The notes below the pieces were generated by a model. The model made no database searches, was not told where the DNA came from, and saw only the letters and a program-made list of their open reading frames with translations. From Candidatus Woesearchaeota archaeon (GTDB taxonomy: Archaea > Nanobdellota > Nanobdellia > Woesearchaeales > UBA10216), in the NCBI GenBank assembly GCA_016935265.1, contig JAFGRH010000002.1, positions 6,423-30,422 on the forward strand: a DNA stretch of 24,000 bases, read 5' to 3'. Positions 4,951 to 24,000 of the stretch are shown piece after piece. The translations under genes and the position numbers were made by a program. Each line of letters opens with the position of its first letter. Positions within the stretch are counted from its first letter, which is position 1.

Positions 4951-6114
4951 TTATTTTTTGCCTTTAAGCGCCGCAAGCGCAGGAAGTTCTTTTCCTTCCA
5001 AGAATTCAAGCATTGCTCCGCCGCCTGTCGATACAAAAGTAAACTTTTCCTTAAGCCCTGCCCTTTCCATGGCTGCAATTGTATCTCCCCCGCCCAATAT
5101 CGTGGTTGCGCCTGAGAAGGTTATGGCTTTTCCAAGCTCAAAAGTCCCCTTTGAGAAAGGCTCAGACTCGAAAACGCCCATCGGCCCGTTCCAAAGTATT
5201 GTTTTAGCCGAGCTTATCTTTTCAGAGAAGATTTCCACTGTTTTAGGGCCTATGTCAAGCCCTTTTTTGTCCTTGGGCATGCTGTCAACACTTACAACTT
5301 CTGTTTCAGATGAATCTGCAGTTTCTGCAAAAACTGCATCCACAGGAAGGATAACTTCCTCGTTCAGAAGGCTGTTTGCAACCTCAAGCTTCTCGTTCTC
5401 GACAAGGCTTCTTCCAACTTCCTTTCCCTCTGACTTAAGGAAGGTGAACATCATCGCTCCTCCAATCAGCAGGTAATCTGCCTTTTCAGCGAGCTTTCGT
5501 ATCACACCTATCTTGTCTGATACTTTCGCGCCGCCAAGAACCGCGACAAAAGGCCTTTTAGCTTTATCAATAAGCTTCGAGAGCGTTTCCACTTCCTTTT
5601 GCAGGAGCAAGCCTGCGTAGCTGGGCAGAAATTTAGTGATTGCAACAACAGAGGCATTTGCCCTGTGGGATACGCCAAAAGCGTCATTTACATAGATTTC
5701 AGCGAGCTCTGCTAATTGCTTAGCAAAGCCCTCATCGTTAGCCTCCTCTTCAGAGTGGAAGCGGAGGTTTTCAAGCATAAGTATTTCCCCCTCGTTAAGG
5801 GATTCTGCAACTGCCTTTATTTCCCCACCAACGCAGTCATTGACCTTTTCAACATCCTTGTGCAGGAGCTCGGAAAGGTGCTCTGCAACAGCATCCAGCC
5901 TCATCTCAGGAACAGCTTTCCCTCTCGGCCTGCCGAGGTGCGACATTATTATTACCTTGGCGTGCCCCTCAAGAAGGTATTTTATTGTAGGCAGGGACTC
6001 CTTTAATCGGGTATCGTCAACAACCTTTTCCCCTTTCAAAGGGACGTTGTAGTCAAACCTTACAAGAACCCTTTTGCCCTTTACATCAGCGTCTTTCAGA
6101 AGAGGCAGCTCCAT
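4951..6114 (-). CDS. pgk: Phosphoglycerate kinase
   Basis: [26 protein letters not shown]...SHLGRPRGK...GGGDT...STGGGAMLEFLEGKELPALAAL. Start chosen at the ATG (6112-6114) that overlaps the gap TAA by 1 nt (TAATG). The ORF track extends 16 codons further, into gap. Confidence 0.93.
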   Translation of the reverse strand: MELPLLKDADVKGKRVLVRFDYNVPLKGEKVVDDTRLKESLPTIKYLLEGHAKVIIMSHLGRPRGKAVPEMRLDAVAEHLSELLHKDVEKVNDCVGGEIKAVAESLNEGEILMLENLRFHSEEEANDEGFAKQLAELAEIYVNDAFGVSHRANASVVAITKFLPSYAGLLLQKEVETLSKLIDKAKRPFVAVLGGAKVSDKIGVIRKLAEKADYLLIGGAMMFTFLKSEGKEVGRSLVENEKLEVANSLLNEEVILPVDAVFAETADSSETEVVSVDSMPKDKKGLDIGPKTVEIFSEKISSAKTILWNGPMGVFESEPFSKGTFELGKAITFSGATTILGGGDTIAAMERAGLKEKFTFVSTGGGAMLEFLEGKELPALAALKGKK

Positions 6115-7109
6115 TAAACCATCTCCTTGAGGACTTCGACCATCCTGCAGGAAAAGCCCCACTCGTTGTCATACCAGGTAACTATCTTAACGAGGTTTCC
6201 ATCAACTACATTTGTCATCAGGGAGTCAAATATGCTGCTGTGGGGGTTTCCTATTATGTCTGTTGAAACCAGAGGCTCGTCAGAATACTGTATTATGCCG
6301 CGCATGTAGCCAAGCGCAGCCTGCTTGAAAGCCTTGTTCACTGCTTCTACTGTTGTGGTTTTCTCAACTTCGCAGACAAAGTCAGTAACTGAGCCGTTCG
6401 GGACAGGCACGCGCATTGATATGCCATCCAGCTTTCCCTTGAGTTCAGGAATAACTTCTGCAACAGACTTAGCAGCTCCCGTAGTTGTGGGTATTATATT
6501 AATAGCTGCTGCTCTTGCCCTTCTCAGGTCCTTGTGCGGCAAATCCAATATTTTCTGGTCGTTTGTGTAGGCGTGTATTGTTGTGAGGAAGCCGTGCTTT
6601 ATGCTGAAGTTGTCGTGCAGCACCTTAACAGCAGGCGCCAAAGAGTTGGTAGTGCATGATGCGTTCGAGCAGATGTTGTGCTTTTTCTTGTCGTAATCCT
6701 GATCGTTGACGCCCCTGACCATTGTTAAGTCAGGCTTTCCCTTTGCAGGTGCAGAGATTAATACCTTTTTTGCGCCTGCCTTTATGTGTTTTGCAGCGTC
6801 CTCAGGCTTTGTGAACAGCCCTGTGCTCTCAACAACGATGTCTATCTTCAGCTTTGCCCACGGCAATTTTTCAGGGTCCTTTTCAGAAAGGACTATAATC
6901 CTTTTGTTGTTAATCGAAAGGTCATTACCGGCTGCTTTTACGTCTGCCTGGAGCTTTCCGTGCACAGAGTCGTACTTCAGGAGGTGGGCAAGCGTCTTTG
7001 CGTCCGTGAGGTCGTTAACAGCGACAAACTCAAGGCGCTTTTCCTTCAGGCCAGCCCTTACGAGCATCCTCCCTATCCTTCCGAAGCCATTGATTGCGAT
7101 TCTTACCAT
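6114..7109 (-). CDS. gap: Glyceraldehyde-3-phosphate dehydrogenase, type I (bacterial/eukaryal GapA-like)
   Basis: [17 protein letters not shown]-binding start, active site SNASCTTN, and WYDNEWGFS near the C-terminus. The SD-like aggggtgat sits directly upstream on the minus strand. Confidence 0.95.
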
Positions 7110-8053: not shown

Positions 8054-8061
8054 TTTTTTTT
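8054..8061 (+). terminator. Oligo-T tract, a possible archaeal terminator for the upstream gene
   Basis: A run of 8 T lies 52 nt after the TAG of the 7256-8002 ORF. Archaeal termination commonly uses T runs. It sits directly against the carA start, so its role is uncertain. Confidence 0.25.
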
Positions 8062-8062
8062 G

Positions 8063-9124
8063 ATGAGTGCTAAACTTGTGCTTGAAGACAAGAGCGTTTT
8101 CTACGGGGCTTCATTTGGTGCTTCTCGTTCTGTAGCAGGAGAGGTAGTCTTCAATACAAGCATGGTTGGCTATCCTGAAGCAATGACTGATCCCTCTTAC
8201 AGGGGGCAGATATTAGTCCTTACTTATCCCTTAGTTGGCAACTACGGAGTTCCATCAGATGAAAAGGATGAGCTTGGCCTGCTAAAGAACTTTGAGTCAG
8301 ATAAGATACAGATAAGCGGCCTTATAATTTCTGATTATTCTTACAAGCACAGCCACTGGAGCTCTGTAAGGAGCCTTGCGGACTGGATGAAGAAGCAGAA
8401 TATTCCGGGAATTGCGGGCGTGGACACAAGGGCCCTCACTAAAAAGCTGCGCGAGAAGGGCGTTATGCTTGGCAAGATGGTGATAGAGGGGAAAATTGAT
8501 TTTGAAGACCCAAACAAAAGGAACCTTGCCGCAGAGGTTTCTGTAAGGGAAAAGGTTGTTTATAACGAGAGCGGAAAGAAAAAAGTAGTTCTTGTTGACT
8601 GCGGTGCAAAGAACAACATAATAAGGAGCCTTGCCCAGCGCGGATGCTGCGTCATACGAGTTCCCTGGGATTACAATTTTCTTGAGGAGGAGTTTGACGG
8701 CTTAATGGTAAGCAACGGACCAGGCGACCCGAAGATGTGCGATGCTGCGATAAAGAACGTTGCTGCCACGATGAAGAAGGGAATCCCTACTTTCGGCATA
8801 TGCCTGGGAAACCAGATAGTGGGGCTCGCCGCAGGGTGTGATACCTATAAGCTGAAGTACGGCCACCGCTCGCAGAACCAGCCCTGCACCGATATGGAAA
8901 CAAAAAGGTGCTACATCACTACGCAGAACCACGGATTTGCTGTTGACGCAAGAAAGATGCCTTCCGGCTGGGAGGAGTGGTTCAGGAACGAGAACGACGG
9001 CACAAATGAAGGGCTTAGGCACAAAACAAAGCCTTTCATGTCTGTCCAGTTCCATCCTGAAGCGACGCCAGGCCCTGTTGATACTGCATTCCTCTTTGAC
9101 AGGTTTGTGGGGATGATGAAATGA
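8063..9124 (+). CDS. carA: Carbamoyl-phosphate synthase small (glutamine amidotransferase) subunit
   Basis: VFNTSMVGYPEAMTDPSYRGQILVLTYPLVGNYG, nucleophile elbow GICLGNQ, HGFAV, and QFHPE (His/Glu of the triad). An alternative TTG start lies at 8060. Confidence 0.93.
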   Translation: MSAKLVLEDKSVFYGASFGASRSVAGEVVFNTSMVGYPEAMTDPSYRGQILVLTYPLVGNYGVPSDEKDELGLLKNFESDKIQISGLIISDYSYKHSHWSSVRSLADWMKKQNIPGIAGVDTRALTKKLREKGVMLGKMVIEGKIDFEDPNKRNLAAEVSVREKVVYNESGKKKVVLVDCGAKNNIIRSLAQRGCCVIRVPWDYNFLEEEFDGLMVSNGPGDPKMCDAAIKNVAATMKKGIPTFGICLGNQIVGLAAGCDTYKLKYGHRSQNQPCTDMETKRCYITTQNHGFAVDARKMPSGWEEWFRNENDGTNEGLRHKTKPFMSVQFHPEATPGPVDTAFLFDRFVGMMK

Positions 9125-9798
9125 TGAAAATAGGCCACCGCGGGGCTGCAGACCTTGAGCCTGAGAACACTCTGCTCGGAATAAAGAGAGCGATTGAGCT
9201 TGGCATGGATGCAGTGGAAGTCGATGTTCGCAAGACAAAGGACAACCACCTCGTTGTCATTCACGATGAAAAGGTTGACCGGACAACTGACGGAAAGGGC
9301 TATGTCTGCGAGATGACCCTTGAACAGATTCAGAAGCTGAAGTCAGGGAAAGGAGAAAGAATACCCACGATACAGCAAGTGATTGATGCGGTTAAGGGAA
9401 AATGCAAGCTCATCATCGAGCTTAAGGAGCACACGACAGAAATTGCAGTTGCTGAAATAATTAAGAAGAATAAGCTGGAGGAAGAATGCTACGTCATTTC
9501 TTTCCACCACCCGATTATAAGGATGATTAAGTCCTACTGCCCAGAACTTCATACAGGATTGCTTTTCGTGGGCGAGCCTGTTGAACCTGTGAAGGTGGCA
9601 GAAGAGGCAAATTCAGAAGCCCTATTCCCGAACTACAAGTTTTTAACCAACCAGATGACTTCAAAGCTGCACAACGCAGGGATGAAAATTTTTGTATGGA
9701 ACTGCGATACAAAAGAAGACATAGAATGCATGAAAAAGGCAGGCGTTGACGGCATAAGCAGCAACAGGCCTGATTTGCTGGCAGAGGTGCTTGGATGA
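9121..9798 (+). CDS. Glycerophosphodiester phosphodiesterase (GDPD family)
   Basis: MMKIGHRGAADLEPENTLLGIKRAIELGMDAVEVDVRKTKDNHLVVIHDEKVDRTTDG is the canonical GDPD N-terminal signature (HRG...ENT...E.DV...D...V.HD). Overlaps the carA stop (ATGA). Confidence 0.85.
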   Translation: MMKIGHRGAADLEPENTLLGIKRAIELGMDAVEVDVRKTKDNHLVVIHDEKVDRTTDGKGYVCEMTLEQIQKLKSGKGERIPTIQQVIDAVKGKCKLIIELKEHTTEIAVAEIIKKNKLEEECYVISFHHPIIRMIKSYCPELHTGLLFVGEPVEPVKVAEEANSEALFPNYKFLTNQMTSKLHNAGMKIFVWNCDTKEDIECMKKAGVDGISSNRPDLLAEVLG

Positions 9799-9810
9799 GA
9801 AATGTGAAAG

Positions 9811-10060
9811 AATTCCTGAAAAAACAAAAGATTTTCAGAGAATCCGCACTAGCCACTGGTCAGGCTCGGCTAGGACATATAAAACGGAAGTGTACTTATA
9901 ATTCTACGCTCGAGGCGCACGCAGACCGCCTAAATTATGGCTTTTGGTCTAACGACCAAAACCCATTTACGGCGGTCCGCTTAACGCGCCCCTCGCTCCG
10001 GAAGAGTGAGATTTCCAACATCCACTGTGGAAATCTCACATTAAATGAGTTTTCCGGAGA
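9811..10060 (+). ncRNA. Unclassified highly structured RNA region (a leader or ncRNA) upstream of the homing endonuclease core
   Basis: Perfect helices read directly from the sequence. H1: ctgaaaa 9816-9822 pairs with ttttcag 9832-9838. H2: ctagcc 9849-9854 pairs with ggctag 9868-9873. H3: cgaggcgc 9911-9918 pairs with gcgc(cc)cctcg 9986-9995, and encloses H4. H4: gaccgcc 9924-9930 pairs with ggcggtc 9971-9977, with an apical ttttggtc 9942-9949 paired to gaccaaaa 9954-9961 (loop taac). H5: ctccggaa 9996-10003 pairs with ttccggag 10052-10059, plus the 12-bp gtgagatttcca 10006-10017 paired to tggaaatctcac 10028-10039. The 3' strand of H5 contains the ggag that sits 8 nt before ATG 10068. TATA-like atataaaa (9877-9884) lies about 27 nt before H3. 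The stems are locally GC-rich and the Arg codons are CGN-rich, unlike neighbouring genes. Confidence 0.5.
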
Positions 10061-10067
10061 AAGAAAA

Positions 10068-11027
10068 ATGGAAACAAAGTTTGAAGTGCACTTTTGGAAC
10101 TTATCTAATAGAGCAAGATATCACCTAGGTGCTTCTTTCTTAAAAAGGCTCTTTGACAACGCCGGAGCCGGGGATTTGCGCCAGCTGGCAAAACATATAG
10201 GTGTTTCTTATCCTTACATCTCACCATTAGTTAGGGGAGTTTACAGCATACCTACAAACCTTCTTGTAAAGCTTGCTGAAAAAGCAAATATCGGATTAGA
10301 AGAGGTTGAAAAAAACATAGTTGCTGTCAGGACTAGACACGGAAAGGTTTGTAGATTGAAATTTCCGATATTACCATCTGCTTCAATGGCTTCTTTGATA
10401 GGGCATGTGTTTGGCGATGGTTACATTGGAAACAAGAAAAGGCAATTTGAGTATTGTAACGACAATCCTAATCTATTAGCAGAGGTAAAGAAGCATTTAA
10501 GGGTTGCTTTTGGATTAGAACCGATGACAGAAAGGGCGAATAGAATAGGCTACTCATCTATTGTTGGAGAAATATTGGTAGCGTTTGGCTCTCACGTTGC
10601 GCCTAAAGTAAAATCAGAGAAACAGATACCTGAATGGATTAAATCAGGACCGAAAGAATACAAAGCTTCGTTCTTAAAGGCGCTTTTTGATGATGACGGC
10701 TCGGTCCTCTATTCCGAAGGTTACAATGCTAAAGGGGTCAACTTTTATCAGATAAGGGAGAAGAATATTCTACAAAAATCCCACCAGCTCCTTGACGAAA
10801 TAAAACAATTGCTGCAGGAATTTGAAATTTTCCCGGGAGAACCGCATTTGAGAAAAACCTATTTTAGCCATGGCGAAGAGCATGCAATCAGCTATATCAA
10901 TATCACAAATTACAAGAGCATTTTAAATTTCTACTCAAAGATAGGTTTGGCCGACGGAGATAAGAATAATCGGCTTAAAAAGATTGTAGCAAGAAGAATT
11001 CACAATAATCTAGGAGGTAACTTATGA
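10068..11027 (+). CDS. Free-standing double-motif LAGLIDADG homing endonuclease with an N-terminal HTH domain
   Basis: Motif 1 is SLIGHVFGDGYIG and motif 2 is ASFLKALFDDDGSV, about 100 aa apart, which is the monomeric two-domain architecture; the acidic catalytic residues are retained. An HTH-like LRQLAKHIGVSYPYISPLVRGVYSIPTNLLVKLAE lies upstream of them. The same frame stays open back to ATG 9795 (an ATGA overlap with GDPD), so a 410-aa form is possible. The stop TGA 11025-11027 overlaps the carB ATG. Confidence 0.8.
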   Translation: METKFEVHFWNLSNRARYHLGASFLKRLFDNAGAGDLRQLAKHIGVSYPYISPLVRGVYSIPTNLLVKLAEKANIGLEEVEKNIVAVRTRHGKVCRLKFPILPSASMASLIGHVFGDGYIGNKKRQFEYCNDNPNLLAEVKKHLRVAFGLEPMTERANRIGYSSIVGEILVAFGSHVAPKVKSEKQIPEWIKSGPKEYKASFLKALFDDDGSVLYSEGYNAKGVNFYQIREKNILQKSHQLLDEIKQLLQEFEIFPGEPHLRKTYFSHGEEHAISYINITNYKSILNFYSKIGLADGDKNNRLKKIVARRIHNNLGGNL

Positions 11028-14000
11028 AAGAAAAGCCACACAAAGTTTTAGTGCTAGGCAGTGGGGCTCTTAAAATCGGAGAGGCCGGCGAGAGTGCCTA
11101 AAAGCACCGCCATTTCGACTACTCCGGTTCACAAGCCCTGAAAGCGCTTAAGGAAGAAGGCATAAAGACAGTCCTGATTAACCCTAACATTGCTACTATT
11201 CAGACTGACAAGAGGTTTGCTGACAGCATTTACTTCCTGCCTGTCAATGCAGACTTTGCAACTAAAGTGATTGCTAAGGAAAAGCCTGACGGCATCCTGC
11301 TCAGCTTCGGCGGGCAGACAGCGCTGAACTGCGGCGTTGAGCTGGAGAGGCGGGGTGTTTTGAAGAAATACGGCGTAAAAGTTCTTGGAACGCCTGTCGA
11401 AACGATAAGGAATACTGAGGACAGGCAGCTTTTTGTTGATAAGCTTAACGAGATAAACAAGAAGACCCCGAGAAGCTTTGCTGTGAAGACAGTTTCGGAT
11501 GCTGTAAAAGCTGCCAAAAAGCTCGGCTTCCCAATAATCATAAGGTGCGCTTTCTCGCTTGGCGGGCAGGGCTCGAACATCTGCTACGAAGAGGAATCTT
11601 TGAAGAAAAGCGCTGCAATAGCGCTGTCGAACACTCCCCAGATTCTTGTTGAGGAATACCTTGGAGGCTGGAAGGAAGTTGAGTATGAAGTTGTGCGAGA
11701 TTCCTATGACAACTGCATTACTGTCTGCAACATGGAGAACTTTGACCCGCTCGGCATACACACAGGAGAGAGCATAGTTGTTGCTCCATCGCAAACACTC
11801 ACCAATCATGAATACCACAAGCTCAGGGAAATCTCAATCGCTGTTATAAAGCACCTAGGGATTATTGGGGAGTGCAACATACAGTTCGCCCTTGACCCAA
11901 AGAGCGATGATTACAGGATTATAGAGGTAAATGCCCGCCTTTCCAGAAGCTCTGCCTTGGCGAGCAAGGCTACAGGCTACCCTCTTGCTTTTGTAGCTGC
12001 AAAGCTTGCGCTGGGATACTCCCTGCCTGAGCTAAGGAACTCGATAACAAAGTCAACAACTGCCTGCTTCGAGCCTGCGTTGGATTACATCGTTGTTAAG
12101 ATTCCGAGATGGGACCTTAAGAAGTTCAAGAACGTCTCAAAGCTCATAGGCACAGGGATGAAAAGCGTTGGCGAGGTAATGGCAATAGGCAGAAATTTTG
12201 AGGAGTCATTCCAGAAAGCCCTGAGGATGCTTGACATAGGAATGTACGGGCTTGCAGCTAACAACATGGAGTTCAGCGACCTTGACAGCGAGCTGAAAAA
12301 CCCCACGGATGAGCGGGTTTTCGCAATAGCAGAGGCTTTCAGAAAAGGCTATACTGTTGAAAAGGTGAATGCCTTCTCGAGGATAGATTGCTGGTATTTA
12401 GAAAAGATGAAGGGAATAATGGACATTGAAAAAGAGATTCGCGGAAAGCTCAGCCCTGAAGTTCTCCTGAGGGCAAAGAAGGCGGGCTTTTCAGACAAGC
12501 AGATATCCCTTCTGCAGGACAAGCCTGAGCTAGAGATAAGGAAGTACAGGAAGGAAAACAGGATAATGCCTGTTGTCAAGCAGATAGACACCCTTGCCGC
12601 AGAATACCCTGCGAAGACGAATTACCTCTATATGACTTACAACGGCATTGAGAATGACATAGAGTTCAGCAACAAAAAAACTGTCATAGTGCTCGGCTCA
12701 GGGGCTTACCGAATCGGCAGCTCAGTAGAGTTTGACTGGTGCTGCGTAAACGCTGTTTTTACACTAAGAAAGCTGGGCTACAACACCATAATGATAAATT
12801 ACAATCCGGAAACGGTCTCGACTGACTATGACGAGTGCGACAGGCTTTACTTTGACGAGCTTTCCTTCGAAAACGTTGCTGACATCTATGACAGGGAAAA
12901 GCCTGAGGGTGTGATAATATCGATGGGCGGGCAGATTCCGAACAACATTGCGATGAAGCTTAGGAATTACGGCTGCAGGATATTCGGCACAAAGCCTGAA
13001 AGCATAGACAACGCGGAAGACAGGTACAAGTTCTCAAGCCTCCTTGACAGGCTAGGCGTTGAGCAGCCTGAGTGGAGGGAATTGAAAAGCGCAAAGGAGG
13101 CAAAGGAATTTGCGCAGAAGGCAGGCTATCCTGTCCTTGTCAGGCCCTCTTACGTGCTCAGCGGCGCTGCCATGAGCGTCGCAACAAATGACGATGAGCT
13201 TCAGGAATACCTAACTAAAGCCTCAAAGGTGAACCAGGAGTATCCTGTTGTGATAAGCAAGTTCATAACCAACGCGAGGGAAATTGAGATTGATGCTGTG
13301 GCTAATAACGGCAAGCTTGTTGTGTGGGCTGTTACAGAACACCTCGAGAACGCAGGGGTGCATTCAGGCGATGCAACAATGGTTCTTCCGCCTCAGAAGA
13401 CCTACCTCGAAACCATTAGGAGAATTGAAAAGACAGCAAGGGTTATAGCACATTCGCTCAAGATAACAGGACCTTTCAACATACAGTTCCTAGCGAAGGA
13501 GGGATTCATCAAGGTTATAGAGTGCAACCTCCGCGCGTCAAGAAGCTTTCCTTTTGTTTCCAAGGTCCTTAAGACAAACTTCATAGAGCTGGCTGTAAAA
13601 ATGATAATGGGCAGGAGTGTCTCAGAGGAAGTTGCAAGCCAGCGAACATTCGCAACGCTTGACTACGTGGGGGTTAAGGCTCCGCAGTTCTCATTCTCAA
13701 GGCTCACAGGCGCAGACCCGATAGTTACTGTTGAGATGTCGTCAACAGGGGAAGTTGCTTGTTTGGGTGAGGACGCTGAGGAAGCCCTGCTGAAGTCAAT
13801 GCTTGCCACGGGATTCAGGTTTCCGAAGAAAAGGGTGCTTTTGAGCATTGGGGGCAATGAGAACAAGGTTAGGATGCTCGAAACCGCAAGGGTGCTGAAG
13901 AAGCTCGGGCTTGAGATATGCGCAACTGAGAAAACCTCAAAGTTCCTTGAGCAGGAAGGCATAGGCAACACCCTGCTTAACAAGATTGGAGAGAGGAAAA

Positions 14001-14227
14001 AGCCTAACATATATGACTATCTTACTGGCAAGAAGATTGACCTTGTCATAAACATCCCTATAGGCATGAGCTGGCGTGAGAGGCAGGACGGCTACATAAT
14101 AAGAAGGGCTGCTGCTGACTTCAGCATACCGCTTATAACAAACGCGCAACTCGCCAAATCAGTTGTAAACGCAATAGCCATGAAAAAGCACAAGGACCTC
14201 CAGATAAAGTCGTGGGAGGAATATTAG
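11024..14227 (+). CDS. carB: Carbamoyl-phosphate synthase large subunit, interrupted by a 21-nt insert carrying an in-frame TAA; proposed mature CDS join(11024..11092,11114..14227), 1060 aa
   Basis: Strong SD aggaggt (11012-11018) lies 5 nt before ATG 11024. The protein reads MKEKPHKVLVLGSGALKIGEAGE, then [SA*KHRH], then FDYSGSQALKALKEEGIKTVLINPNIATIQTD...GGQTALNCG. Two ATP-grasp halves are present (EVNARLSRSSALASKATGYPLA and ECNLRASRSFPFVSK) plus a C-terminal MGS-like domain. The ORF track only reports the part from internal Met 11267. All 1037 codons downstream of the insert are intact. Confidence 0.9.
11093..11113 (+). other. Candidate bulge-helix-bulge (relaxed BHB) mini-intron in the carB mRNA
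   Basis: The 21 nt are agtgcctaaaagcaccgccat. Central 4-bp helix: ggcg 11087-11090 pairs with cgcc 11108-11111. Unpaired aga lies at 11091-11093. Helix gtgc 11094-11097 pairs with gcac 11104-11107 and closes the loop ctaaaa, which holds the TAA. Unpaired att lies at 11112-11114. Cuts after the second nt of each 3-nt element remove exactly these 21 nt and recreate GAG|TTC (E-F). Confidence 0.4.
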
Positions 14228-20748: not shown

Positions 20749-22062
20749 ATGGCTAAAAACGTGGTGGTTGTCGGAGCCTATTGGGGTGATGAGGGCAAGG
20801 GCAAGATAGTTGATTTCTTATCCGGCGATGTTGAGTTTGTTGCGAGGTTTAACGGCGGGGATAATGCGGGCCATACGATAACTATTGAGGGCAAAGAGTA
20901 CAAGGTACACCTTATCCCTTCAGGCGTTTTCCAGGGGAAGAAGGTTGCAATCGGACCGGGAGTTCTCGTTAATCCTGAAACGCTCTGCAATGAGTATGAT
21001 TATCTTGAGGAAGCTGGATTCAAGCCAAAGCTTTCAATTGACGCACGCGCCAATGTTATAATGCCTTACCACATTGAGATTGACAAGGCAAGGGAAGGCT
21101 CCGGAAAGGGTGTTGGCAGCACAAAGAAGGGCATCGGGCCTTGCATGGAGGATGCCGCAAGGAGGACAACAGCCATAATAATAGATGACCTTGTAAGTGA
21201 TGCGTTAAGGCCGAGGCTGAAAAAGGTTATTTCGCTTAAAGAGGATGAGCTGAGGAAGTATGATATTCTGAGCAATGGAATTGACGAATATGTTGAAGAG
21301 ATTGCAGTCTCTTACGAGAAATTCGGGAAGAAGATTAAGGGATTTGTTACTGACGAGCTTACATACACGCTTACAGAAGCATCGATGAAAGGCGGCGTGC
21401 TTGTTGAGGGCGGGCAGGGAACGCTGCTTGACTTAATGCACGGCACAAAGCCTTACCAGACATCTACAATAACTACGGCAGAGGCTGCTTTCGCAACTCT
21501 TGGTCTGGATGGAAGGCTTTTCAAAAGAGTTCTCGTTGCTAAGGCTTACCCGACAAGGGTCGGGGATGGACCTTTCCCGACAAAGATTGAGGGAGAGCTC
21601 GCAAAGCAGATAAGGGACAAGGGGAATGAGTACGGAACGACAACAGGCCGCCCAAGGGATGTAGGCATGCCTGACTTTGTCGCGCTGAGATATTCTGCCC
21701 ATATTAACGGGCTTTCAAGGGATGACGGCTGGGCGCTTACTTTGGTTGATGTTCTTGCTGGCATTCCTTTCAAGATAGCAGTGGCTTACGAAAAAGATGG
21801 AAAGAGAACGACTTTCCCTGCAAGGCTTGACGGCTGGAAGCCTGTCTATGAGGAAGCAGAGGGCTGGCCTGAAATTAGCAAGGATGAAGCGAAGGCAATC
21901 TGCAGCAAAGGCTATGAAGCGCTGCCTGAAGGAGTTAAGGGCTACTGCAAAAGGCTTGTCGGGTTCACAGGCGTTCCTTTAGAGATTGTATCGCTCGGCA
22001 AGGACCGCTCACTTACGCTGGTAAAGGGTGTCCGTGAAAGGACATTGGAGTACCTAAAATGA
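20749..22062 (+). CDS. purA: Adenylosuccinate synthetase
   Basis: MAKNVVVVGAYWGDEGKGKIVD, GGDNAGHTI, and GTTTGRPRD. The ORF track's TTG at 20725 falls in the promoter block, so ATG 20749 is preferred. Confidence 0.93.
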   Translation: MAKNVVVVGAYWGDEGKGKIVDFLSGDVEFVARFNGGDNAGHTITIEGKEYKVHLIPSGVFQGKKVAIGPGVLVNPETLCNEYDYLEEAGFKPKLSIDARANVIMPYHIEIDKAREGSGKGVGSTKKGIGPCMEDAARRTTAIIIDDLVSDALRPRLKKVISLKEDELRKYDILSNGIDEYVEEIAVSYEKFGKKIKGFVTDELTYTLTEASMKGGVLVEGGQGTLLDLMHGTKPYQTSTITTAEAAFATLGLDGRLFKRVLVAKAYPTRVGDGPFPTKIEGELAKQIRDKGNEYGTTTGRPRDVGMPDFVALRYSAHINGLSRDDGWALTLVDVLAGIPFKIAVAYEKDGKRTTFPARLDGWKPVYEEAEGWPEISKDEAKAICSKGYEALPEGVKGYCKRLVGFTGVPLEIVSLGKDRSLTLVKGVRERTLEYLK

Positions 22063-22757
22063 AAGTCGATGACCTTGTTAAGGTTAACCGCGCGATAATA
22101 AGCGCTTACGACAAGAAAGGGCTTGCTGACTTTGCAGAATCTCTCGTTAAGCTTAACCCAGAACTGGAAATTTACAGCAGCAGCGGCACTGCCGCAGAGC
22201 TTCAGAAGAAGGTTATGAAGAACATCAAGGAAATATCAGACTACACGAAGTTCCCTGAGATGCCCTCTGGTCTGGTTAAGACGCTTCATCCGAAAATACA
22301 CGCAGGCATACTCGCAGAGCCGGGCAACGGGGAGCACTCAGCCTATCTTCAGATGCACGGCATAAAGCAATTCGACATGATTGTTGTTAACTTGTATCCT
22401 TTTTCCGCAGTTGCCTCTGACCCGATGAAGACGGTTGAGGACGCAAGGCAGAATATGGACATAGGCGGCGTTTCGCTTATAGAGGCTGCCTCGAAGAACT
22501 TTTTGAGGGTGGCTGTAATCACAGACCCAGGAGATTACGGGTGGGTCATAGCTAACCTGAAAAAGAACAAAGGCTCTGCTGACCTGAAGACTCGAGTCAC
22601 TCTCGCAAAAAAGGCCCTGAAGTATCTTAGCAATTATCTCGGCAGCATTTCTGCCTATTACGAGAAAAAGCCTGATAACGATATCCAAAAATTCTACGGC
22701 GTTGAGAAGCATGAGTGGGCAGAAAGACTACAAGAAAGACTACGCAAGGATAGTTGA
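22059..22757 (+). CDS. purH: IMP cyclohydrolase (MGS-like N-terminal domain of PurH) as a stand-alone ORF
   Basis: RAIISAYDKKGL...SSGTAAEL...ISDYTKFPEMPSGLVKTLHPKIHAGILA...FDMIVVNLYPF...DIGGVSLIEAASKNF. ATGA overlap with purA. Confidence 0.8.
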   Translation: MKVDDLVKVNRAIISAYDKKGLADFAESLVKLNPELEIYSSSGTAAELQKKVMKNIKEISDYTKFPEMPSGLVKTLHPKIHAGILAEPGNGEHSAYLQMHGIKQFDMIVVNLYPFSAVASDPMKTVEDARQNMDIGGVSLIEAASKNFLRVAVITDPGDYGWVIANLKKNKGSADLKTRVTLAKKALKYLSNYLGSISAYYEKKPDNDIQKFYGVEKHEWAERLQERLRKDS

Positions 22758-24000
22758 CGAGCACTTTCCTGATGAGCTCAGAATATCCTTGGGCGAGCAG
22801 ACACTGCTCTACAAAAAGAGGAACTGGAGCATACCTGAAAAGGGCGAGATTGTAAAGCGGGGGCTGAGGTACGGCGAAAACCCTGGTCAGGAGGCTGCAA
22901 TTTATGAACTAGTCCAGGGCAACCTTGTCATAGGCGAATGCTCTTACATCACGCCTGGCAACGGTCTTGTAAGCTCGGTCTCAGAAAAGGACCTCATACA
23001 GATTGGAAAGCACCCAAGCATGAATAACCTCACCGATGTTGACAGCGCCCTGAACATACTTAAGTTCTTCCCTGAAAAGCCTACAGTGGTTATTGTGAAG
23101 CACAGCAACCCTTCAGGCGTTGCGCAGCGCGAAACTCTTAAGGAAGCTTACATAGAGGCAAACCTTGCGGACAGGCTCGCCGCTTTCGGCGGGGCGGCTG
23201 TTTTCAACAGGAAGCTTGACCGCGAGACCGCTGAGGAAATAATCAAAAACTACCTTGAGGTTGTCTGCGCGCCTGAGTTTGATGAAAAGGCGCTTGAAAT
23301 AATGAAGACAAAGAAGAACCTCAGGATAATACTCATCAGGAACATAAAGAACCTTGAAAGATACCAGAATATGCGTTTTCTGGACTTCAAATCAATGACT
23401 GACGGCGGGATTGTAGTCCAGCAGTCGCCAATATTGACAATCACCAGCAAGAATGACCTTGAGCCTGCAACCGCAACAAAGGAGGAGAGGGACTACAAAA
23501 TAGAAAGGGCCCCTACAGAGCAGGAGTATGAGGACATGATTTTCGGCTGGAAAGTGGAATATGGCGTGAAGTCAAACTCAGTAATATACGTAAAGAACAA
23601 AGCCACTGTTGCCATTGGGACTGGCGGGCAGGACAGGGTAGGCGTTGCTGAGATGGCTGCTGCAAAGGCATACACGAAGTATGCGGACAGGATTTGCGCA
23701 GAAAAGCAAGGCATGCCATACTGGGTTTTCTCAATGAAAGTAAAGAAGGGAGAGATTGCAGAGAGTGAAAAGAAAAAGATTGATGATGAGGTAGAGAGGC
23801 AAAAAGGCAACCTGAAAGGGTCAGTGATGGTTTCTGACGGATTCTTCCCGTTCCGCGATACTGTTGATGTTGCTGCAAAGTACGGAGTTACGGCAATAAT
23901 ACAGCCGGGCGGCTCGATAAGGGACTTTGAGAGCATTGAAGCCTGCAACGAGCACGGCATATCAATGGTCTTCACAGGGCAGCGTGCTTTCAAGCACTAG
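22711..24000 (+). CDS. purH: AICAR formyltransferase (C-terminal domain of PurH) as a separate ORF in the +1 frame
   Basis: FPDELRISL...LRYGENPGQEAAIY...VIVKHSNPSGVA...AFGGAAVFN...VSDGFFPFRDTVDVAAKYGVTAIIQPGGSIRD...RAFKH then stop. Overlaps the preceding ORF by 47 nt. An alternative TTG start lies at 22702. Confidence 0.85.
   Translation: MSGQKDYKKDYARIVDEHFPDELRISLGEQTLLYKKRNWSIPEKGEIVKRGLRYGENPGQEAAIYELVQGNLVIGECSYITPGNGLVSSVSEKDLIQIGKHPSMNNLTDVDSALNILKFFPEKPTVVIVKHSNPSGVAQRETLKEAYIEANLADRLAAFGGAAVFNRKLDRETAEEIIKNYLEVVCAPEFDEKALEIMKTKKNLRIILIRNIKNLERYQNMRFLDFKSMTDGGIVVQQSPILTITSKNDLEPATATKEERDYKIERAPTEQEYEDMIFGWKVEYGVKSNSVIYVKNKATVAIGTGGQDRVGVAEMAAAKAYTKYADRICAEKQGMPYWVFSMKVKKGEIAESEKKKIDDEVERQKGNLKGSVMVSDGFFPFRDTVDVAAKYGVTAIIQPGGSIRDFESIEACNEHGISMVFTGQRAFKH

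Follow-up and report, generated by a model that had tools for sequence, protein, structure and literature searches.

In the stretch of DNA analyzed here (24,000 nucleotides, nt, of a Candidatus Woesearchaeota genome, assembly GCA_016935265.1, contig JAFGRH010000002.1, positions 6,423 to 30,422 of the forward strand; referred to below as the window), the reading frame of carB is interrupted by 21 nt that include a stop codon. Inserts with a maintained secondary structure are found at the same junction in carB loci of other archaea. [quoted passage not shown] An earlier note on this DNA had put forward such an mRNA intron, and this proposal is now supported by the recurrence of the insert, the covariation of its hairpin and the restoration of the frame.

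A recurrent insert at one junction of carB

The gene starts at an ATG (11024), 6 nt after a GGAGG (coordinates of all features are collected in Table 1), and its first 23 codons (MKEKPHKVLVLGSGALKIGEAGE) end with GAG at 11090-11092. The insert that follows (agtgcctaaaagcaccgccat) reads in frame as SA*KHRH, with the TAA at 11099-11101, and the carB frame is reopened by a TTC (11114-11116), continuing as FDYSGSQ plus 1030 further codons (1037 in total) devoid of lesions up to a TAG at 14225-14227. The positions of the start codon, the insert, its stop and the resumption of the frame were exactly those given in the earlier note, which had also correctly described the remaining 1037 codons as intact. 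The insert falls precisely between GAG and TTC of the near-universal motif GEAGEFDYSG, which is unbroken in 119 of the 120 closest CarB proteins, the other one being truncated at its N-terminus. Over its full length, the CarB of the window is 60-71% identical to the retrieved CarB proteins and carB loci. Removal of 11093-11113 alone gives Glu-Phe, while shifting the removed segment by one base results in Asp-Phe or Glu-Ile.

A comparison of carB across related genomes had been named beforehand as the decisive test, and its outcome was that the insert recurs, that the register of the helices is kept and that the hairpin covaries. Inserts at the Glu|Phe junction were found in around 30 other carB loci belonging to two or more archaeal phyla, the carriers being DPANN archaea (Woesearchaeota and Diapherotrites) and Thaumarchaeota, including the complete genome of Cenarchaeum symbiosum. 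These loci were reached by three independent routes: a truncated CarB protein, a DNA-pattern scan of metagenomes, and the relatives of the open reading frame (ORF) located upstream of carB. The truncated protein (P0108) begins with MNRRHFDYSG, and at the same junction its locus (L081, GCA_030636085.1) carries 20 inserted nt, with a central helix and bulges identical to those of the window and a wholly different hairpin (cctat/atagg). The pattern used for the scan (GGCGAR, a gap, CGCC, two free bases and the codons for FDYSG) matched at least 120 loci; among the matches listed, 20 corresponded to carB and 102 were chance occurrences elsewhere. The relatives of the upstream ORF led to inserts of 20 (L202), 17 (L204), 39 (L205), 18 (L206), 22 (L208/209) and 19 nt (L210), and to a further one in L100. 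In the finished genome of C. symbiosum A (DP000238.1), 22 nt (agccgccaaaagcggccgccag) are inserted here, and carB is annotated only from a downstream ATG. In general, gene callers and NCBI leave the insert-bearing carB truncated, described as "partial" or as a pseudogene, or uncalled. When GTDB genomes were scanned with CarB, only intron-less relatives, with 60-67% identity, appeared among the matches listed.

The 26 inserts that were tabulated range from 17 to 40 nt. Thirteen of them are not multiples of three and 25 contain an in-frame stop, the remaining one shifting the frame. These frameshifting lengths and stops argue that the inserts are not tolerated protein loops: the stop-free insertion of seven codons that the earlier note had envisaged in relatives did not appear among them, and a tolerated insertion of this type is ruled out. 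Recoding of the stop codon, already considered a poor fit in that note, was also ruled out, given that all three stops terminate genes in the window (TAA 3, TAG 7, TGA 10) and that a frameshift results from half of the homologous inserts. The stop is situated in the loop of the hairpin, in the frame of the first exon and usually as the third codon of the intron, and it can be TAA, TAG or TGA. An in-frame stop was present in 7 of the 102 chance matches of the pattern, as compared with the 25 of 26 homologous inserts. It could represent a fail-safe that ends translation of the unspliced RNA after around 25 residues, or derive from shared ancestry.

In the DPANN group of carriers, CarB is 59-67% identical to that of the window and comes from metagenome-assembled genomes (MAGs) of Woesearchaeota or Nanoarchaeota, plus one MAG of Diapherotrites (L205). 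In a second group the identity is around 50%, and the best protein matches are from Nitrosopumilus, Nitrosotalea, Nitrososphaera and Cenarchaeum. Among the best 120 proteins obtained in the thaumarchaeal search, 38 show an unbroken IG[EQ][AG]GE-FDYSG and 15 more are unbroken in the variant forms IGEAAEFDYSG or IGKAAEFDYSG. The majority of the other proteins are of two kinds: some have their first residue shortly after the motif (MKSVLINPN..., MLINPN..., MATIQ...), and others open with exon 1 and the insert read through out of frame (MGQLKSEKQAKVTSSGRQ-FDYSG); contig ends may account for a part of these calls. The predicted intron is common, not universal, in this group.

A separate observation concerns the other end of the gene. 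In C. symbiosum A, carB is further split (L207, 4968-4971) into ORFs of 656 and 370 residues with a 4-nt overlap, and the best 120 CarB calls from Thaumarchaeota or Bathyarchaeota have at most 951 residues, also where the contig is longer than 100 kb. A further break or a natural split may exist near the C-terminal domain of CarB in these organisms.

Predicted fold, covariation and splicing

Positions 11060-11140 were folded with RNAfold, and the minimum free energy (MFE) and centroid structures agreed (z = -2.4). The pairing proposed in the earlier note was reproduced by the MFE fold: ggcg (11087-11090) pairs with cgcc (11108-11111), aga (11091-11093) is unpaired, and gtgc:gcac closes a loop, ctaaaa, that contains the TAA. 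According to the note, an outer exon-exon helix was not evident; the fold does contain one, which joins 11074-11083 to 11119-11129, with three unpaired bases on its 5' side and seven on its 3' side. It is displaced by 4-5 nt and thus set back from the 3' cut site, the adjacent outer helix h being absent. The description of two 3-nt bulges held only in part: the one on the 5' side is a true bulge in the 26 tabulated inserts, whereas on the 3' side the segment att is bounded only by the central helix (H) and belongs to a 7-nt unpaired strand facing three unpaired nt.

In tRNA introns, each strand of the central helix is followed on its 3' side by a bulge, which is cut after its second base; this arrangement derives from the anticodon-intron pair rule. 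With this cut rule, the modeled geometry would be that of a genuine BHB in the relaxed HBh' form, the HBh' or bulge-helix-loop class having been defined previously (PMC3978253; PMC6379350). When cuts were shifted in silico, only those after the second nt of both 3-nt elements restored Glu-Phe, as had been anticipated for the window, and the same rule restored it in all 26 tabulated inserts and in four further loci. A single base separates the predicted 5' cut from the hairpin helix, which has 3-7 bp in the 26 cases and ends at the central helix.

The compact helix-bulge-hairpin geometry is common by itself, with 47 matches in the window and a mean of 34 in shuffled sequences, so that the evidence draws its weight from the coincidence of the fold with the single pair of cuts that restores the protein, and not from the fold itself. 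The chance of this geometry falling on a specified pair of cut sites is around 2e-5 per pair, and in the scan of the window for further compact motifs none besides that at 11092/11113 coincided with a broken gene. Rfam gave no match over 10800-11400. No intron-bearing tRNA that could serve as a control for the cut rule was found in the window or the loci, where the intron calls made by ARAGORN were spurious.

Covariation was evaluated in an alignment of 21 distinct sequences (A1), in which the loops were trimmed and replaced by a fixed spacer to obtain gap-free columns. Paired cells amounted to 99.4%, as opposed to 26-58% when the partners were slid, and compensatory double changes were present at the four pairs of the hairpin. 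The number of double-change cells was 36, as compared with 9.6 +/- 3.6 in shuffles, none of the 500 shuffles reaching 36. Helix H was paired in all 21 sequences, as G-C or G-U pairs, with G-U in three of them. As a negative control, three or more pairs in register were observed in 6 of the 102 non-carB matches of the pattern and in 20 of the 20 carB matches. The 8-9 loci obtained through the protein routes (L081, L202, L204-L208, L210) are those unbiased with respect to the central helix.

A second insert was detected in two of the loci, eight codons upstream of the first (GSGA|I/L), at a site that is uninterrupted in the window. It has 30 nt in L081 (826-855) and 31 nt in L206 (around 6339-6369), and forms long hairpins; three Watson-Crick pairs and one G-A mismatch make up the central helix at this site. 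Application of the cut rule gives gca a|tc in L081, resulting in GSGA-I-RIGQAGE, and gca t|tg in L206, resulting in GSGA-L-KIGEAGE. The regenerated codons, ATC (Ile) and TTG (Leu), correspond to the two consensus forms of the clade, and this second site is an independent check of the predicted rule.

The exon sequences around the junction are also constrained. Codon identity for the same amino acid among intron-bearing alleles was 0.62-0.72 over the eight codons on each side of the junction, as compared with 0.3-0.45 in the rest of the gene and 0.38-0.40 over the same 8+8 codons of intron-less genes. This increase in synonymous identity (11066-11092 and 11114-11137 in the window) holds even between DPANN and Thaumarchaeota. 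The constraint affects the codons that form the central helix and the displaced exon-exon helix, the latter being 95.9% paired across relatives with zero covariation. In 64 intron-less carB genes, GGC was used for the Gly preceding the junction in 19, TTC in 26, GAC in 26, and GGA for the earlier Gly in 15, while in the six intron alleles retrieved independently of the pattern (that of the window, L081, L202, L204, L205 and L206) GGC, TTC and GAC were found in 6/6 and GGA in 5/6. These data fit an RNA structure extending over approximately 25 nt per side, and fit short co-conversion tracts equally well.

From what is known of BHB motifs and the EndA family, we infer the following sequence of events. 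In the pre-mRNA, the ggcg of the exon would pair with the cgcc of the intron as a 4-bp central helix, which the aga bulge would part from the gtgc/gcac hairpin, with att trailing the other strand of the central helix. EndA would then cut after the second base of each 3-nt segment, and RtcB would ligate the exons, giving GAG-TTC and recreating the GEAGEFDYSG motif. With the TAA in the hairpin loop, unspliced RNA would give just a peptide of 25 residues. An alpha4 EndA with an L3 loop, linked to more disrupted tRNA genes, has been described in DPANN archaea including Woesearchaeota, and a broad-specificity (alpha-beta)2 enzyme in Thaumarchaeota (PMC5829648).

Several considerations weigh against this interpretation. 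Splicing is a prediction from the sequence, and the host genes for EndA and RtcB lie outside the 24-kb window. The 3' cut site does not have a closed 3-nt bulge, the nearest exon-exon helix beginning 4-5 nt further, so that an EndA of strict specificity would not be expected to cut there. The covariation counts ignore shared ancestry, the sequences being related and not independent events, and the central helix is present by construction in the 20 loci of the pattern scan. Finally, the carB of L204 lacks the part corresponding to CarB residues 466-519 and has a frameshift, which suggests that some copies may truly be decaying. The deletion in L204 (7613-7631) includes the conserved VKQIDTLAAEYPAKT motif and could be a real deletion, the mark of a pseudogene or a misassembly.

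Other explanations for the interruption of carB fare worse than an intron. Programmed ribosome hopping takes place at the coding gap of phage T4 gene 60, and the stop within a hairpin shortly after the break in carB is reminiscent of that gap; nevertheless, we consider it very improbable that the insert is bypassed by the ribosome with no RNA splicing. Take-off and landing codons are unmatched (GAG or GAA before the gap, and CAT, CAA, CAG or CTA before TTC), the sole matching pair in the window (GCC) lands out of frame, and the gap varies between 17 and 40 nt; moreover, the conserved 4-bp exon-intron helix and the 3-nt offsets would be needless for hopping. It is also very improbable that carB represents a pseudogene in decay, disabled by a functionless insertion of 21 nt, even if NCBI leaves the gene uncalled in several relatives and L204 has its additional deletion and frameshift. 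Random decay neither strikes one junction repeatedly nor keeps base pairing, while here around 30 independent lineages show the same junction and a covarying hairpin, the ORFs downstream show no other damage in any case checked, and in the window gene the remaining 1037 codons are complete and encode a protein 60-71% identical to the CarB sequences retrieved. The view of the earlier note that gene decay fits poorly is thus reinforced by recurrence with maintained pairing and intact frames. That the source is a MAG could point to a sequencing or assembly artefact, which can practically be discarded in view of the homologous inserts in independent assemblies of many projects and in the finished DP000238.1. 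Recurrence and covariation together exclude decay, artefact and recoding as general explanations.

The LAGLIDADG gene upstream of carB

The ORF between the GDPD-family gene and carB, which shows ATGA overlaps at both ends, had been overlooked in the earlier note, as was the displaced exon-exon helix. Its product matches Pfam LAGLIDADG_3 (7.8e-11) and, weakly, HTH_3, and resembles the endonuclease domains of the RtcB, PolII, RFC and GyrA inteins (NCBIfam), with the intein splicing blocks absent. The matches obtained in a PDB sequence search, with a Cro-like helix-turn-helix (HTH) protein and PI-PkoII, were only marginal. The sequence includes HVFGDGYIG and ALFDDDGSV, with GDG and DDDG invariant in 27 homologues of 45-79% identity. 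With these two motifs, each containing a catalytic acidic residue, the protein is a candidate single-chain LAGLIDADG homing endonuclease. The family includes 27 clear members (E <= 2e-63) among 31 matches in total, all from Woesearchaeota, Nanoarchaeota, Diapherotrites or unnamed archaea; one of them (P0121, JXB11_00100) is 100% identical to the ORF of the window. No relatives were found in viral contigs.

All ten family members with a readable context are located directly upstream of a carB with the Glu|Phe insert, the interruption in the case of P0122 being deduced only from a truncated CarB call of 1029 residues. This association suggests a form of collaborative homing in archaea. The neighbor upstream of the ORF varies (GDPD, NUDIX, carA, an ORF of 101-105 residues or a HAD hydrolase), and the distance between the intron and the end of the ORF is 66-175 nt. 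In-frame GDPD-CarB fusions are found in Woesearchaeota relatives (P0026, 1284 residues; P0082, 1104 residues), which would make the adjacency of GDPD and carB older and the ORF an insertion.

If homing operates here, the LAGLIDADG protein would cut intron-less carB at or near the junction, within the codons for GEAGE|FDYSG; the intron would protect its own genome from the cut, and both elements would spread via repair of the break. An EndA-dependent intron of 17-40 nt would in this way confer immunity free of cost. The association is well documented and the mechanism is drawn from the gene arrangement, for which reason we propose it tentatively, at a little under an even chance. It is also conceivable, with the odds leaning somewhat against it, that the intron and the LAGLIDADG gene form a two-part mobile element, the protein-spliced counterpart of phage collaborative homing, that has moved between DPANN and Thaumarchaeota. 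Either both parts together or the intron and its short exon flanks would then have passed between archaeal phyla, and this would explain the shared site and the near-identical synonymous positions flanking it.

A competing possibility, to be taken seriously even if we would not bet on it, is that the intron is real and the ORF unrelated to it, either as a domesticated regulator of the pyrimidine operon or as an endonuclease for the carA-carB spacer. Within the flanks examined, the intron occurs without the ORF in L081, L129, L177 and all the thaumarchaeal loci, a fact that counts against homing; the protein carries an extra HTH region, and a target site for the putative endonuclease is not identifiable from the sequence. 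A lack of relationship is difficult to reconcile with ten of ten members adjoining an interrupted carB when, among the 120 closest CarB proteins, truncation affects just one, and with an upstream neighbor that changes and a downstream partner that never does. The invariance of the catalytic acidic residues and a distance to the intron that is within co-conversion reach also favor a connection between both elements.

Known introns, significance and other features of the window

The rarity of BHB introns in protein-coding genes, with cbf5 as the classic case, was pointed out in the earlier note and is borne out by the literature: according to a 2020 study, no further mRNA BHB intron than that of cbf5 had been reported, and the study itself contributed one in a 5' untranslated region (UTR) (PMC7714728), and a 2025 paper cites the cbf5 work alone (PMC12397907). 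No report of the carB intron, or of any mRNA intron in DPANN or Thaumarchaeota, was found in the open-access literature searched, subscription literature being outside its scope. The cbf5 introns of Crenarchaeota (Watanabe 2002; Yoshinari 2006; Yokobori 2009, PMC2738675) have relaxed BHB borders and are too short for a nuclease; they are likewise tiny and located inside coding sequence (16-44 bp, versus 17-40 nt in carB). In both cases there is no room for a protein, the distribution among relatives is patchy and the gene is often mis-annotated as frameshifted or split. On the other hand, cbf5 encodes an RNA-modification enzyme and carB a core metabolic one; the cbf5 introns are found in Sulfolobales and Desulfurococcales, and those of carB in DPANN and Thaumarchaeota, at one insertion site common to phyla and with an adjacent endonuclease gene in DPANN. 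Splicing of cbf5 was shown experimentally, whereas that of carB is predicted from sequence. In Haloferax volcanii, the 5' UTR of HVO_1309 has a BHB intron (PMC7714728) that is also a substrate of the splicing endonuclease in an mRNA, neither tRNA nor rRNA, but it sits in the untranslated leader and leaves the frame uninterrupted, while the carB intron breaks it.

Regarding the association with an endonuclease, archaeal rRNA and tRNA BHB introns that harbor LAGLIDADG genes similarly combine an EndA-type intron and a LAGLIDADG protein as a presumptive mobile unit at a conserved site (PMC2738675). In those introns the endonuclease gene lies inside the intron, whereas in carB it is a separate ORF upstream of the start codon, the intron is ORF-less and the host gene codes for a protein. 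Among cyanophages, F-CphI of S-PM2 is a free-standing endonuclease encoded beside the intron-containing psbA, and in the model of collaborative homing the intron blocks self-cleavage and the endonuclease mobilizes both (Zeng, Bonocora and Shub 2009, as described in PMC6083498). The common features are a free-standing endonuclease gene and, next to it, a gene with an ORF-less intron at a conserved site. The psbA intron, however, is a group I ribozyme that belongs to a phage and splices itself, and that of carB would be a protein-dependent BHB mini-intron in cellular archaea; F-CphI is Endo VII-like and the neighbor of carB is of the LAGLIDADG type; and for F-CphI both cleavage and protection have been demonstrated, while in the carB case they would be predicted from gene arrangement. 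Trans-homing by T4 mobE and I-TevIII is a related case (PMC2790892).

What appears to be new in carB is that one site is shared between phyla, that the LAGLIDADG partner is free-standing and that the collaborative arrangement resembles that of phages. LAGLIDADG endonucleases known to be carried by archaeal BHB introns include I-DmoI and I-PorI. A second family of BHB introns in coding sequences would show that this class is more than an oddity of Crenarchaeota and is not limited to genes for RNA processing, the host gene here belonging to core nucleotide and arginine biosynthesis and being common to DPANN and ammonia-oxidising Thaumarchaeota. A mis-called carB also means that metabolic reconstructions may wrongly score pyrimidine or arginine synthesis as missing. 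Pairing with a LAGLIDADG gene offers a testable model for the spread of ORF-less archaeal mini-introns, a question left open for cbf5 (PMC2738675). Should the two-part element be confirmed, BHB introns of protein genes would be an ongoing, mobile phenomenon systematically hidden by gene callers as pseudogenes. Some of the carriers belong to groups with cultured members.

Table 1. Features of the carB region, with positions in the window
Feature	Position	Strand	Basis
Shine-Dalgarno-like GGAGG	11013..11017	+	Sequence
carB exon 1, 23 codons (MKEKPHKVLVLGSGALKIGEAGE)	11024..11092	+	Translation; matches the N-termini of 119/120 closest CarB
Candidate mini-intron (agtgcctaaaagcaccgccat), 21 nt, TAA at 11099-11101 in hairpin loop	11093..11113	+	Homologous inserts in around 30 loci
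carB exon 2, 1037 codons + TAG, no other lesion	11114..14227	+	Translation
Central helix H, 5' strand ggcg (exon 1)	11087..11090	+	MFE fold; paired in 21/21 aligned sequences
Central helix H, 3' strand cgcc (intron)	11108..11111	+	MFE fold and alignment
5' 3-nt bulge aga, predicted cut after 11092	11091..11093	+	MFE fold; 3-nt spacing in 26/26 inserts
Intron hairpin h', gtgc, loop ctaaaa, gcac	11094..11107	+	MFE fold; 4/4 pairs covary, 98.8% of cells paired
3' 3-nt segment att, predicted cut after 11113, no adjacent closing helix	11112..11114	+	MFE fold
Displaced exon-exon helix, 5' strand	11074..11083	+	MFE fold; 95.9% paired in relatives, without covariation
Displaced exon-exon helix, 3' strand	11119..11129	+	MFE fold; 95.9% paired in relatives, without covariation
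Putative free-standing two-motif LAGLIDADG endonuclease ORF, N-terminal Cro-like HTH region	9795..11027	+	Pfam, NCBIfam, invariant motifs

The window as a whole carries a gene cluster for the biosynthesis of pyrimidines and purines. On the plus strand, carA (8060-9124), the GDPD-family gene (9121-9798) and the LAGLIDADG ORF, of 410 codons, precede carB, which is followed by pyrD, pyrK, pyrC, pyrE, pyrF, purA and purH. The last of these consists of two ORFs in different frames, 22059-22757 (MGS/IMPCH) and 22702-24000 (AICARFT, with a possible ATG at 22711), that overlap by around 50 nt; the arrangement could be natural, with two genes, or result from a frameshift, and no helix-bulge-hairpin motif was found at the overlap. 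On the minus strand are pgk (4951-6162) and gap (6114-7109). The longest ORF for pgk begins with a GTG and shares 49 nt with the end of gap, and the true start of pgk is probably an internal Met (MELPLLKD...). Both pgk and gap are of bacterial type despite the archaeal nature of the genome.

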